A DNA stretch of 36,051 nt, taken from contig JBHIAT010000013.1 of assembly GCA_046758705.1 (NCBI GenBank), positions 1-36,051 on the forward strand, written 5' to 3'. A program made the position numbers and the translations under genes. The notes below the pieces were generated by a model. The model did not search any database and was not told where the DNA came from. It saw only the letters and a list, made by a program, of their open reading frames with translations. The stretch's first letter is position 1. Every line of letters starts with the position of its first letter. Positions 7,426-11,123 of the stretch are shown here, piece after piece. The stretch is from Candidatus Bipolaricaulia bacterium (GTDB taxonomy: Bacteria > Bipolaricaulota > Bipolaricaulia > JBHIAT01).

Positions 7426-7628
7426 CGGCCCCCATCCTATAGACCTATAGGTAGTCTTTATGACTTCCTCTTCTCCTGTGTGAGATCCTTCAAATACTCC
7501 TGTCTTGTTTCAGAACTTTTCATAGCGGATTCCCCTTTTGAGTTGTATACAGAAGTATCTCATTATCGGGTAGCGTAAAGACTGACTTTTTATCTTTGGA
7601 AGCCACCCGAGTCAGGAGCCATAGGAAC

Positions 7629-8265
7629 CTATAAGGTCTTAAGGAATTGCTTAATGTCATCAAATATTGGATTCTCCCACGCCCAGTAACCTGCATGTGA
7701 CGCTTGCCCTAACAGCAAACCGGGGGTAGGTCTGGATGCCAGAAATGCATGAACTTTCGCTTTCGGTAAGTTACCAGGCGAATCGCCAGTCTGATTCTGT
7801 ACACATTGAAAGTATTGGTCTATGCATGACATGATCGGATCGTTGCTGATAGTTTGCAAACACAGCGTTTCAAGCATTCCAGAATTGGAACAATCTGGTA
7901 GGATAAAGACAGAAACTTTAGGATTGCTACCGGCTACAACCATAGGTTGTTTTGGCACACTTAACCTTGCTCGGCCCAGGCTACCACACACAGACCGGAA
8001 AGCGGTGGTTGCGTCCTCTTCTGCATCTCGGACGATGCCGAGTGAAGTAACGTCATCAAATCCGGACGTGATGATCAGGGTTTCTAAGTAAGGCGCCAAA
8101 TCCCCCACACTACCGAAGTTTCGTATTTTCGATCTCAGTCAATAAATCCAGGTGGCGAAGCAAGGCCTTGAAGAATTCGAAGGCACTGCGCCCTTCAACA
8201 AGAAGCACTTTCGGATAGGTGATAGGAGATTTCGACTGTGGATATTGAAGATCGTCGGGAAGCAT
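7629..8265 (-). pseudogene. DUF3226-like (TOPRIM-related) protein with a frameshift
   Basis: MLPDD...KVLLVEGRSAFEFFKALL...TEIE, then one extra A in the run at 8126-8129; removing it gives IRNFGSVGDLAPYL...SLGIVRDAE...FILPD...GMLETLCL...KAKVHAFLA. Confidence 0.75.
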
Positions 8266-8399
8266 CAACGTGCCTCAAGATCTGTCGATATCACAATGGC
8301 AAGCTTTTTCTGGTCATAAGTTACAGCCCGGATATCGCCATTGATACGATCTAAGCGATGCAGACAGAAGTCATACTGCTCACTGGCTTCGAATGCCTG
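8265..8399 (-). pseudogene. C-terminal remnant of an AAA_21/AAA_15-type ATPase coupled to the DUF3226 gene
   Basis: QAFEASEQYDFCLHRLDRINGDIRAVTYDQKKLAIVISTDLEAR*, with TGATG overlap into DUF3226. Resembles the C-terminal tail of ATPases that precede DUF3226 genes; Walker motifs absent. Confidence 0.65.
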
Positions 8400-8457
8400 A
8401 TTATAGCAAAATGTTGTGATGTTTTCTCTTTTGAAGATAGTCGTCCATGAACGGAGA

Positions 8458-8486
8458 TTGACAGAAGATTTCTTCGACAGTATACT
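8458..8486 (+). promoter_or_regulatory. sigma70 promoter of the valS leader transcript
   Basis: TTGACA (8458-8463), 17 bp, TATACT (8481-8486). Confidence 0.85.
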
Positions 8487-8505
8487 AAGCTGTTAGGAGG
8501 ATTTC

Positions 8506-8604
8506 ATGGATCAGTCCCTTGCACCTGTTGAACGAGTCGGTGGGCAGGTCGTAGGTGTAGTATCCGTATCCCTACGTCACCGACCCATTGCGTTCGGGTG
8601 CTAA
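8506..8604 (+). CDS. Val-rich leader peptide, 32 aa (MDQSLAPVERVGGQVVGVVSVSLRHRPIAFGC)
   Basis: AGGAGG RBS at 8495-8500; 7 Val codons, 5 of them in GTC GTA GGT GTA GTA TCC GTA (8548-8568); lies directly upstream of the attenuator and valS. Confidence 0.82.
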   Translation: MDQSLAPVERVGGQVVGVVSVSLRHRPIAFGC

Positions 8605-8674
8605 GGGCTCGTACCTAGCATAGATCGGATGGGCGGGTGACGGAGACCTGCCCGTGTTTATTTTCGCCACGGGC
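8516..8674 (+). promoter_or_regulatory. Alternative attenuator hairpins of the valS leader
   Basis: GTCGGTG(8536-8542):CACCGAC(8578-8584); CGTCACCGACCCAT(8575-8588):ATGGGCGGGTGACG(8629-8642); ATGGGCGGGT(8629-8638):ACCTGCCCGT(8646-8655); GCCCGTG(8650-8656):CACGGGC(8668-8674). Confidence 0.78.
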
Positions 8675-8704
8675 GAACGGAACTGCTCGTGGCGTTTTCA
8701 TTTT
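8665..8704 (+). terminator. Intrinsic terminator (attenuator) immediately before the valS RBS
   Basis: CGCCACGGGC (8665-8674) / GCTCGTGGCG (8685-8694) 10-bp stem followed by TTTTCATTTT. Confidence 0.85.
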
Positions 8705-8714
8705 GGAGGTTGAG

Positions 8715-11123
8715 ATGAGTCAGTTAACCAAGCGATATGACTTCAGGAGCGTCGAGAAGCGATGGCGCGATCTCTGGAACGAGCGAGGGATCTACCGATT
8801 CGATCCCGACGGCGACCGACCGATCTACGCGATCGACACCCCGCCGCCAACCGTCTCCGGGAACCTGCACATCGGCCACGTCTTCTCCTACACCCATGCC
8901 GACATCATCGCCCGGTTCCGGCGGATGCGAGGCGATCGGGTCTTTTACCCGTTCGGGTTTGACGACAACGGGCTGGCGAGCGAGCGGTTCGTCGAGCAAG
9001 AACACGGCGTCAGCGTCCGAGAGCTAGACCGGCCGACCTTCGAAAAGCTCTGTCTGGAAACGACCCGCAACATGGAAAAACGGTTCGAAGCGCTATGGAA
9101 TAGCGTGGGTCTGAGCGTCGACTGGAACTTCCGCTACCGGACGATTGAGCCCCTGGCGCAACGGATCTCTCAACGGTCGTTCATCGAGCTGTACCGAAAC
9201 GGGCGAGCCTATCGCAAGGACGCTCCGTCGCTGTGGTGCCCGGAGTGTCAGACGGCGATCGCCCAAGCGGAACTTGAGGATCGGGAACGAAAGGCCACCT
9301 GGGTCGAACTGCGGTTCGAAGTCGATGGAGGTGAGCCGATCACCATCGGAACGACCCGACCCGAGTTGCTCCCCGCCTGTGCCGCCATCTTCGTCCATCC
9401 CCAGGATGGGCGTTATATCCACTTGATTGGCAAGCAGGCCAGAACCCCGCTCTTCGACGAAGCCATCCCGACCCTCGCCGACGAACGGGCCGACCCGGAG
9501 CTGGGGACCGGGATCGTGATGTGCTGCACCTTCGGCGATGTGACCGACATCGAGTGGTGGAACGCGCACGATCTGCCGCTCAAGTTAGCCATCGACCGAA
9601 ATGGCCAGATGAGCGAGCCGGCCGGGCGATATGCTGGTCTCCCACTGACCGAGGCCCGAACGCGGATCCTGGAGGATCTGAAGCAGAATGGCACGCTGCT
9701 CGGGGAACGGGCCATCACACACACGGTGAACGTTCACGAGCGCTGCGGAACGGAGGTCGAGTTCCTGGTGACCCGGCAATGGTTCATCCGGGTTCTGGAC
9801 CTGAAGGAGCAACTGCTCGACGCGGGAGCGCAGATCGAATGGACTCCGCCGTTCATGAGAAAACACTACGAGCACTGGGTCCGAAACCTGCGCTGGGACT
9901 GGTGCATCTCCCGACAGCGACCGTTCGGCGTGCCGTTTCCGGTCTGGTTCTGCCGGAACTGCGACGAGATCCTGGTGGCAGACGAGCACGATCTTCCTGT
10001 CGATCCGACCCAAAAGTCACCGGATCGACCCTGCGGATGCGGAAGCGAGGCGTTTGAGCCGGAACAGGATGTGATGGACACCTGGGCGACCTCGGCACTG
10101 ACCCCGCAGATCACCGCCCGTTGGGGCGAGCCGGACGACCTCTCGGATCGGGTCATCCCCATGGACCTTCGTCCCCAGGCCCACGACATCATCCGCACCT
10201 GGGCGTTTTACACGATCGTCAAGTCGCTGTTGCATACTGGGGAGATCCCGTGGCGGTGGGTTTTGATATCGGGACATGCGCTCAAGCGGAACCAGAAGAT
10301 CAGCAAGTCAAAGGGGGTCTCGACCGATCCGTTATCGTTGATCGAGGCCCGGTCGGCCGACGCGATACGCTACTGGGCGTGCGAGACCCGACCCGGGCGG
10401 GACACCGCTTACAGCGAGGACGTCGTCGCTCAGGGACAACGGACGATGATCAAACTGTGGAACGCGTCTCGGTTTGCGCTCATACACCTGGAGGACTATG
10501 ACGAATCCGAAGATAGACCTGCACTCCGGATCATCGACTGCTGGTTGCTGTCAAGACTCTCCAAGACGATCGAGACGGCGTCCCGCCACCTCGAGTCGCA
10601 CGATTACACCTCGGCTAAGGAGATGGTCGAACGCTTCTTCTGGCGGGATCTCTGCGACAACTATCTGGAGTTCGTCAAGCGCCGGCTTTACCATCCTAAG
10701 AAGCAGGCCGAGCGGCAGGCGGTCCAGTATACCTTGCACCATAGCCTCCTAACGGTGTTAAAGCTGTTCGCTCCGATCCTTCCCTACATCACCGAAGAGA
10801 TCTACCATCACGGTTTCGCCGAACGAGAGGGATGCGAGTTGATCCATCTCAGCTCGTGGCCCGAGGCGCATCCGGATTGGACCGATCCGGAAGCAGATAC
10901 CATCGGCGAGCTGGCGATCTCGGTCGTCGAGGCAGTTCGCAAGGAAAAGAGCCTCAGAAAGCTGTCTATGGCGAAGCCGGTCCGGGAGCTGGTGATCCGT
11001 TGCGACGCTGAGACAAACCACCGGCTGGAGCCGGTGCTCCAGGATATCCAGGATCTGACCTATGCTGAAGCGGTCAGCTCCGTCTTGGACGACGTCCCGC
11101 TGGAGGTGATGGTGCGCTTTTGA
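8715..11123 (+). CDS. valS: Valyl-tRNA synthetase, archaeal-like type 2, 802 aa
   Basis: DTPPPTVSGNLHIGH, GFDDNGL, WDWCISRQR, DVMDTWATS, RPQAHDIIRTWAFYT, KISKS; no C-terminal coiled coil. GGAGGT RBS supports the ATG at 8715 rather than 8637. Confidence 0.96.
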   Translation: MSQLTKRYDFRSVEKRWRDLWNERGIYRFDPDGDRPIYAIDTPPPTVSGNLHIGHVFSYTHADIIARFRRMRGDRVFYPFGFDDNGLASERFVEQEHGVSVRELDRPTFEKLCLETTRNMEKRFEALWNSVGLSVDWNFRYRTIEPLAQRISQRSFIELYRNGRAYRKDAPSLWCPECQTAIAQAELEDRERKATWVELRFEVDGGEPITIGTTRPELLPACAAIFVHPQDGRYIHLIGKQARTPLFDEAIPTLADERADPELGTGIVMCCTFGDVTDIEWWNAHDLPLKLAIDRNGQMSEPAGRYAGLPLTEARTRILEDLKQNGTLLGERAITHTVNVHERCGTEVEFLVTRQWFIRVLDLKEQLLDAGAQIEWTPPFMRKHYEHWVRNLRWDWCISRQRPFGVPFPVWFCRNCDEILVADEHDLPVDPTQKSPDRPCGCGSEAFEPEQDVMDTWATSALTPQITARWGEPDDLSDRVIPMDLRPQAHDIIRTWAFYTIVKSLLHTGEIPWRWVLISGHALKRNQKISKSKGVSTDPLSLIEARSADAIRYWACETRPGRDTAYSEDVVAQGQRTMIKLWNASRFALIHLEDYDESEDRPALRIIDCWLLSRLSKTIETASRHLESHDYTSAKEMVERFFWRDLCDNYLEFVKRRLYHPKKQAERQAVQYTLHHSLLTVLKLFAPILPYITEEIYHHGFAEREGCELIHLSSWPEAHPDWTDPEADTIGELAISVVEAVRKEKSLRKLSMAKPVRELVIRCDAETNHRLEPVLQDIQDLTYAEAVSSVLDDVPLEVMVRF

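Follow-up and report, generated by a model that had tools for sequence, protein, structure and literature searches.

The window analysed here is a 36,051-nt stretch of DNA from Candidatus Bipolaricaulia bacterium (assembly GCA_046758705.1, contig JBHIAT010000013.1), and the element in question is the leader region in front of an auxiliary, archaeal-type gene for valyl-tRNA synthetase (valS). The element is real and conserved. It is probably a transcription attenuator of the ribosome-mediated (leader-peptide) kind, which would sense charged tRNA-Val and control the auxiliary valS: a short open reading frame (ORF) with a cluster of Val codons is followed by a chain of alternatively pairing segments and two hairpins with T-runs, and these elements were found at 4 of 4 loci carrying this type of gene. 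The features, with the two predicted terminators named T1 and T2, were as follows.

8458-8486, + strand: sigma-70-type promoter TTGACA-17-TATACT (TTGACA 8458-8463, TATACT 8481-8486), matching 11 of 12 consensus positions
8495-8500, + strand: Shine-Dalgarno site AGGAGG of the leader ORF; the ATG at 8506 starts 5 nt further on
8506-8604, + strand: leader ORF of 32 codons plus stop, peptide MDQSLAPVERVGGQVVGVVSVSLRHRPIAFGC, with 7 Val codons
8538-8549, + strand: segment A, pairing with B (8579-8590); a ribosome stalling where the Val cluster begins, at its first Val codons, would cover it
8548-8568, + strand: Val cluster GTC GTA GGT GTA GTA TCC GTA at the tip of the A:B hairpin, with 5 Val codons, four of them the rare GTA
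8575-8590, + strand: segment B (leader codons 24-29), partner of A or C
8628-8642, + strand: segment C, the 5′ arm of T1 or the partner of B
8646-8656, + strand: segment D, the 3′ arm of T1 or the partner of E, with the T-run 8656-8664 next to it
8665-8675, + strand: segment E, the 5′ arm of T2 or the partner of D
8684-8704, + strand: segment F (8684-8694, the 3′ arm of T2) and the T-run TTTTCATTTT (8695-8704)
8705-8709, + strand: Shine-Dalgarno site GGAGG of valS, outside both terminator hairpins
8715-11123, + strand: auxiliary archaeal-type valS, 802 aa, the putatively regulated gene (NCBIfam PRK13208, 1048 bits, cut-off 738)

A predicted Val-rich leader peptide

The promoter, the AGGAGG site, the 32-codon ORF with seven Val codons and the Val cluster described in the first-pass annotation were each present in the sequence. 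The Val codons lay at 8527, 8536, 8548, 8551, 8557, 8560, and 8566. Val made up 7 of 31 leader codons, against a genome fraction of 0.077 in long ORFs (binomial p = 0.008), and GTA, which is the rarest Val codon of the genome (9.0% of Val codons), accounted for 4 of the 7 (p = 0.0018). Transcription would start near 8493; four promoter-like sites were counted in the 2-kb region, compared with 1.3 ± 1.1 in shuffles. Gene callers miss ORFs this short, so the leader would stay unannotated.

Alternative pairing and predicted tandem terminators

The leader RNA (8490-8720) folded at -95.8 kcal/mol, compared with -79 ± 4.65 kcal/mol for 200 shuffles (z = -3.61), and 0 of the 200 matched it. Segment coordinates were taken from minimum-energy folds. 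All six segments claimed before were present, although A and B had been placed a few bases off, at 8536-8542 and 8575-8588 instead of 8538-8549 and 8579-8590. The pairing of A with B was enclosed in a long hairpin (8513-8612, -45.8 kcal/mol).

The 10-bp C:D hairpin and the E:F hairpin with its U-tract stood as claimed. They correspond to T1, in which 8629-8638 paired with 8646-8655 (10 bp, -18.0 kcal/mol) before GTTTATTTTC, and to T2, in which 8665-8675 paired with 8684-8694 (11 bp, -19.9 kcal/mol) before TTTTCATTTT. A pattern scan detected these two hairpin and T-run sites between the ORF and valS as intrinsic terminators, with termination itself predicted. The alternative pairings were B:C (8575-8589 with 8628-8642, 7 + 6 bp) and D:E (8649-8656 with 8668-8675, 8 bp, -13.0 kcal/mol). 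In the folds B:C excluded T1 and D:E excluded T2, with weak covariation (n = 4). Segment C resembled E and segment D resembled F, and thus T1 and T2 look like duplicates of one terminator.

Conservation of the leader in the phylum

At E ≤ 1e-150, a search of 184 genomes of the phylum gave window-type valS in 3, namely the window's own genome (G000), G092 and G027, and a degraded copy was found in G007. All four loci had a sigma-70-like promoter, a short Val-run ORF just downstream, the same chain of complementary segments, and two hairpin and T-run terminators. The three leaders outside the window were composed as follows.

G027 leader: promoter TTGACA-18-TATAGT; peptide MTLIQFRENANGYVVVVVR; two hairpin and T-run terminators after it
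G007 leader: promoter TTGACA-18-TATACT; peptide MEFKNQANGHVVVVVR; two hairpin and T-run terminators after it
G092 leader: promoter TTGCAA-16-TATAAT, then GGAG; peptide MMLGNFLKNVVTGQVVVRWLPGASAF; two hairpin and T-run terminators after it

Judging from their sequences, the four leaders are homologous, and they aligned at 64-70% column identity. The Val cluster proved to be conserved, since an in-frame Val run occurred in 4 of 4 leaders: GGQVVGVVSV in the window (run VVGVVSV), NVVTGQVVVR in G092 (VV..VVV), NGYVVVVVR in G027, and NGHVVVVVR in G007 (VVVVV in both). The run was encoded by GTT GTG GTC GTC GTT in G027 and by GTC GTT GTC GTC GTT in G007, and the differences were synonymous and confined to third positions. 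Outside the Val run and the preceding Gly the peptides diverged, and their length varied from 16 to 32 residues, which argues against a functional small protein.

The RNAalifold consensus over the four loci consisted of T1 and T2. A single T1 consensus over all four loci failed because the T1 of the window shared only the core ATGGGC/GCCCGT with the others; it extended on the loop side, and the others at the base. The long A:B hairpin was not conserved, and only a short A:B was found in G027 and G007. The pairing chain was kept across the loci, with 88.9% of cells paired for B:C (33-47% in slid controls), 97.1% for D:E (27-43%), and 90% for E:F (33-49%). The gene upstream of valS was polA in G027, compared with an opposite-strand DUF3226 gene in the window, and such differences in the neighbors between loci indicated that the leader travels with valS.

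A covariance model (R1) was built from the four leaders and run on 151 genomes, in which no further full copy of the leader was found. The four strong matches (108-130 bits) were the training loci and thus matched by construction. Six weak matches (24-31 bits) were hairpin and T-run terminators lacking the two-terminator chain; four of the six were single hairpins after apparent coding regions, and several had the form GCCACGGG...CCCGTGGC. Terminators at gene ends with the pattern GCCACGGG-loop-CCCGTGGC and a T-run, which resemble T2, recurred in several genomes of the phylum (L199, L202, L204, and other weak R1 matches). Upstream of the canonical valS genes of the phylum, a Val-run ORF or T-box motif was found at 0 of 24 loci, and four further loci were too short upstream.

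A model of the ribosome switch

In the proposed mechanism, transcription would start at the promoter at 8458-8486, and the 32-codon leader would be translated while RNA polymerase proceeds. If Val-tRNA were plentiful, the ribosome would cross the Val cluster and segment B and reach the stop codon at 8602. C would then pair with D to form T1, a polymerase that escaped T1 would meet E:F (T2), and little valS mRNA would be made. If Val-tRNA were scarce, the ribosome would stall with its A site at an early Val codon (8527, 8536, 8548, or 8551), covering A and leaving B free. Then B:C would form and block T1, the freed D would pair with E once E had been made and so hinder T2, and transcription would read through into valS. 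Without translation, the leaders of the window and G092 would form A:B, T1, and T2 together, and transcription would terminate.

The switch was modeled by partition-function pair probabilities for each codon, using a 28-nt ribosome mask from -15 to +12 nt of the A site. For the window without a ribosome, P(T1) was 0.72 and P(T2) was 0.98. With the A site on codons 2-17, which include V8, V11, V15, and V16, P(T1) was ≤0.14; it was 0.60-0.83 from V18 to the last sense codon and 0.32 with the mask on the stop codon. In G092, P(T1) was 0.86 in the free RNA, 0.07-0.38 between N9 and V15, and ≥0.80 on later codons. In G007, P(T1) was 0.01 in the free RNA; T1 stayed ≤0.05 and T2 ≤0.19 at the first three Val codons of the run, and from the fourth Val codon to the stop T1 reached 0.70-0.89, with T2 parallel to T1 (0.70-0.97 for the two together). 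The free RNA of G027 had a P(T1) of 0.04, and the value was 0.86 at the stop codon. Relief of T1 was thus clear in the window, G092, and G007 and noisy in G027, and relief of T2 at equilibrium was found in G007 and G027 only.

Evidence for and against attenuation

Several observations weigh against the attenuator, and the first of them concern T2. At equilibrium T2 persisted at nearly every stall position (P 0.45-0.98 in the window, at least 0.73 in G092), and the sole exception was R10 in the window, with a P(T2) of 0.06. The first-pass annotation had claimed that stalling frees B:C and D:E and prevents the terminator. In the window folds T1 was indeed removed, but T2 was not removed at equilibrium and D:E was transient. 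In prefix folds with the ribosome on V15 of the window, the D:E hairpin was present while the RNA ended at 8676-8690, and D:E (-13.0 kcal/mol) yielded to T2 (-19.9 kcal/mol) only once F was complete. Since D:E formed transiently before F and T2 was kept at equilibrium, relief of T2 would be kinetic. Kinetic relief is usual for attenuators, and the trp terminator of Escherichia coli is also more stable than its antiterminator. The complementarity of D and E may also simply follow from the duplication of T1 and T2, though it was kept in all four lineages.

Further points against it come from the other loci and from the model itself. P(T1) in G027 was noisy over the five Val codons (0.22, 0.73, 0.10, 0.78, and 0.85). 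In both G027 and G007, read-through was already the preferred fold of the free RNA, which means that in the absence of translation these leaders would not terminate, and no Shine-Dalgarno site was visible before either leader ORF. The ribosome footprint (A site -15 to +12) is an assumption from general knowledge. The covariation expected for an attenuator was found in part: there were two compensatory pairs in B:C and one in E:F, but none in D:E, and the observed covariation score was reached by 34 of 500 shuffles for B:C, 500 of 500 for D:E, and 244 of 500 for E:F, which is not significant. Most paired columns were invariant across the four loci, and G027 and G007 were close to each other; the covariation support is thin because there were only four sequences.

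The genes behind these leaders and the rest of the genome also count on this side. The auxiliary valS of G027 (L002:937-2931) lacked query residues 191-332 in frame, a gap that, from its place in class I synthetases, would presumably take part of the CP1 editing domain. In G007 (L192, minus strand) valS was degraded to a 244-residue frame, and its promoter, Val leader, and both terminators were intact. These two genes suggested that some members of the family may be decaying. A crude scan of the whole genome for a run-ORF, a terminator, and a gene yielded 136 unfiltered candidates. Most were Ser and Arg runs of the kind expected from G+C-rich DNA read off frame; by eye, the valS leader alone made a convincing leader-peptide attenuator.

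One explanation without a ribosome switch was considered, namely that the short ORF is incidental to a structured leader whose tandem terminators are constitutive or controlled by a factor. For example, ValRS or another protein might bind the long hairpin, as in the autoregulation of E. coli thrS, or plain tandem terminators might just set a low basal level. The very stable A:B hairpin (-45.8 kcal/mol), the unrelieved T2 at equilibrium in the window and G092, and the commonness of T2-like GCCACGGG...CCCGTGGC plus T-run hairpins as gene-end terminators in the phylum would suit this. However, the in-frame Val run was retained in 4 of 4 leaders despite divergent peptides of 16-32 residues, the runs of G027 and G007 differed only synonymously, and the long hairpin was not conserved, with only a short A:B in G027 and G007. 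An in-frame codon deletion in a variant strain, described below, also speaks against it. We therefore consider an incidental ORF unlikely.

The variant strain (run X4) was read from low-depth contigs and should be treated with caution. It differed at 12 positions within 8490-8684 and had lost 3 nt at 8563. The deletion removed exactly codon 20 (TCC, Ser) in frame, leaving VVGVVV, and all seven Val codons were unchanged. Three changes fell in the stems of T1 and T2 (8649, 8665, and 8684); they were G-U/G-C exchanges that kept the pairs. Eight changes lay at positions paired in the termination fold, and the pair was kept in six and lost in two. This strain, which co-occurred in one run of the same metagenome study, was <99% alike on most pieces compared and, within 8444-8945, had a 6-nt insertion after 8798 inside valS.

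The auxiliary valS and its origin

The identification of the gene behind the leader as valS was borne out, but it is not the only valS of the organism; it is a second, archaeal-type copy. The canonical valS was located on another contig of the same assembly (G000:C97:5090-7405) and was 36% identical to the window copy. It followed ndk after a short spacer, and no leader was visible upstream. The canonical type was present in all 40 sampled relatives, with 31-36% identity to the window enzyme. Depletion of Val in the window ValRS was considered and rejected, since its Val content was 5.7%, with 7.0% in the canonical enzyme and a median of 5.1% across 69 homologs, which is no special depletion.

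Homologs were obtained by scans of genome and metagenome contigs, from which the best 80 of 579 and the best 80 of 575 confirmed loci were listed. Among the matches listed, those outside the phylum shared 46-55% identity and belonged to Chloroflexota, Fermentibacterota, Saccharimonadota, a Halothermothrix, and DPANN-type archaea. In a FastTree phylogeny of 84 rows, the window, G027, and G092 formed a group with a support of 99, and this group was nested in a bacterial clade with Chloroflexota, Fermentibacterota, and Halothermothrix. The window-type leader was seen at none of the listed homolog loci outside the phylum, and ORFs containing VVV were found upstream in 9 of 153 of them.

In the window, valS was flanked by the opposite-strand DUF3226 gene on one side and sugar-metabolism genes on the other. 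About 1 kb in front of it (7450-8450) had a lower G+C content (0.42-0.51) than the flanking genes (0.55-0.65) and contained no long ORF except a minus-strand DUF3226 fragment, which matched profile positions 55-206 of 208. The low-G+C kilobase and the lone valS among sugar-metabolism genes fit an acquired insert. The source DNA was present in hydrothermal-vent metagenome runs. The phylum is poorly known and has mostly small genomes. If the case holds, there is reason to think that an archaeal-type ValRS that moves horizontally acts as an inducible spare next to the canonical one.

The purpose of the switch could also be broader than Val supply. The same attenuator would report any failure in Val-tRNA charging or elongation, for example when the housekeeping ValRS is inhibited, and the auxiliary enzyme would then act as a back-up that is resistant or stress-proof. 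To our knowledge there is no natural ValRS inhibitor, which counts against this. The sequence gave no sign of resistance, and the window enzyme scored 805 bits with the NCBIfam exception model 'alt_ValS', below the cut-off of 900. In its favor are the second valS itself, 36% identical and beside the canonical one, and the statement, in the accessible part of a review-type text, that duplicate synthetases frequently diverge in their expression or in their susceptibility to antibiotics. On balance we regard this broader purpose as very unlikely. If the window enzyme were such a back-up, it would be switched on whenever the housekeeping ValRS fails.

T-boxes and the exchange of sensors

Many homologous valS genes carry a T-box, which was looked for in the window with the Rfam model RF00230. 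The model scored 94-141 bits upstream of 7 of 40 bacterial homolog loci. It gave no match in the window at the gathering score, nor at E ≤ 10 on 8350-8800, and the T-box reading of the window was rejected. The sole matches of the same interval at E ≤ 10 were two to unrelated families, both at chance level (E = 3.7 and 7.9), and the curated Rfam leader families (Thr, His, Leu, Trp, Phe, and the like) had no match in the window at this threshold. A T-box core 12-mer, GGTGGNACC[AG]CG, was checked against the Rfam matches. It occurred within 400 nt upstream of 81 of 152 listed homolog loci and, by tree rows, in 34 of 36 Chloroflexota and 0 of 13 Fermentibacterota. With up to one mismatch allowed, it was absent upstream of valS in the window, G027, and G092. 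Stem I of a T-box has internal loops, and the nearly perfect long hairpin of the window lacks them. A T-box riboswitch binding uncharged tRNA-Val directly, as these homologs and the sub-threshold T-box of the genome itself might suggest, can hence be dismissed for the window as extremely improbable.

This sub-threshold T-box (G000:C5:3048-3349, minus strand, locus L194; 71.2 bits, cut-off 93, E = 2.7e-15) immediately preceded a gene of 299 residues that encodes a class II synthetase core domain (PF00587), and a BioY gene was on its other side. Both sensor types thus appear to occur in one organism. The 13 Fermentibacterota homologs in the tree (L043, L046, L047, L051, L058, L061-L064, L068, L072, L073, and L088) had neither a T-box motif nor a Val-run ORF upstream.

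The T-boxes of the Chloroflexota homologs and the Val leader of the window clade indicated that the sensor was swapped between lineages. If the leader is the Val-sensing attenuator proposed here, this would be a clear sensor swap in one gene family.

A third arrangement was observed in four AT-rich, Woesearchaeota-like loci (L057:22-165, L059:1275-1425, L099:1345-1468, and L071:1360-1500), which belonged to one small clade of six rows in the valS tree. They had a TATA-box-like TTTAWATATAA and, ~25 nt further on, a putatively leaderless mini-ORF that ended in a Val run, with the peptides MINVLETVVVVV, MYSLWKTLAVVVVQ, MYSLYKTLDVVVC, and MYLVSGIFSVVVA. In three of the four, the Val codons lay within a hairpin, and valS was preceded by a second, long hairpin that ended in TTTTT. 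These leaders had two adjacent hairpins, in which no alternative pairing was found, and thus no mechanism could be proposed.

We speculate, with considerable doubt, that archaeal-type valS has acquired, lineage by lineage, different sensors for one and the same signal: a T-box in Chloroflexota, the six-segment Val leader in the window's phylum, and, independently, a leaderless Val-run mini-ORF with hairpin and T-run in one small Woesearchaeota-like clade. Should the archaeal element be functional, Archaea too would have a synthetase gene under ribosome-coupled amino-acid sensing.

Comparison with known systems

Leader-peptide attenuation is textbook knowledge for biosynthetic operons and for pheST, and pheM-pheST of E. 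coli is a leader-peptide attenuator on a synthetase operon. The window element resembles it in that the cognate amino acid abounds in the leader peptide and a choice between terminator and antiterminator precedes an aminoacyl-tRNA synthetase gene. It differs in using Val instead of Phe, in its two tandem terminators within a six-segment chain instead of a single terminator, and in its gene, an auxiliary archaeal-type enzyme in an unrelated, little-studied phylum; the two share no sequence similarity (Rfam leaders, E ≤ 10).

The his and ilv/leu leader attenuators of enterobacteria control biosynthetic operons and have one terminator. They share with the window the successive segments, with A:B, C:D, and E:F against B:C and D:E, and the runs of branched-chain codons. 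In contrast, the window has T-runs after both C:D and E:F and would regulate a synthetase gene. An auxiliary tryptophanyl-tRNA synthetase gene is reportedly under ribosome-mediated attenuation. This case is similar in that the attenuator acts on a synthetase gene, and on a second copy. It differs in amino acid and phylum, and the tandem-terminator architecture belongs to the window.

Classical attenuators were predicted for trpS and leuS in Streptomyces, with pheST named for gamma-proteobacteria, in the accessible part of PMC1262725, which does not mention valS. The accessible part of PMC2965389, likewise without mention of valS, describes a His leader peptide that replaces the T-box before hisS paralogs in bacilli. 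That is again a switch from T-box to leader peptide within one synthetase family (PMC2965389, same part), whereas the swap considered here lies between lineages, the Chloroflexota with T-boxes and the window clade with a Val leader. The accessible part of PMC4833913 does not mention valS either. Full-text searches, judged by titles and abstracts, found no published leader-peptide attenuator for valS; the supplements of comparative papers, which possibly list more, lay outside these searches.

The T-box (RF00230) before valS acts on the same gene family and responds to the same signal, uncharged versus charged tRNA-Val, but by direct tRNA binding, whereas the window model relies on ribosome stalling. 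As far as searched, the mechanism is of a known kind, and its specificity, its gene, its tandem-terminator chain, and its lineage are new. With predictions already made for trpS, leuS, and hisS paralogs, the valS case, if it holds, would add a Val-specific attenuator on a synthetase gene.

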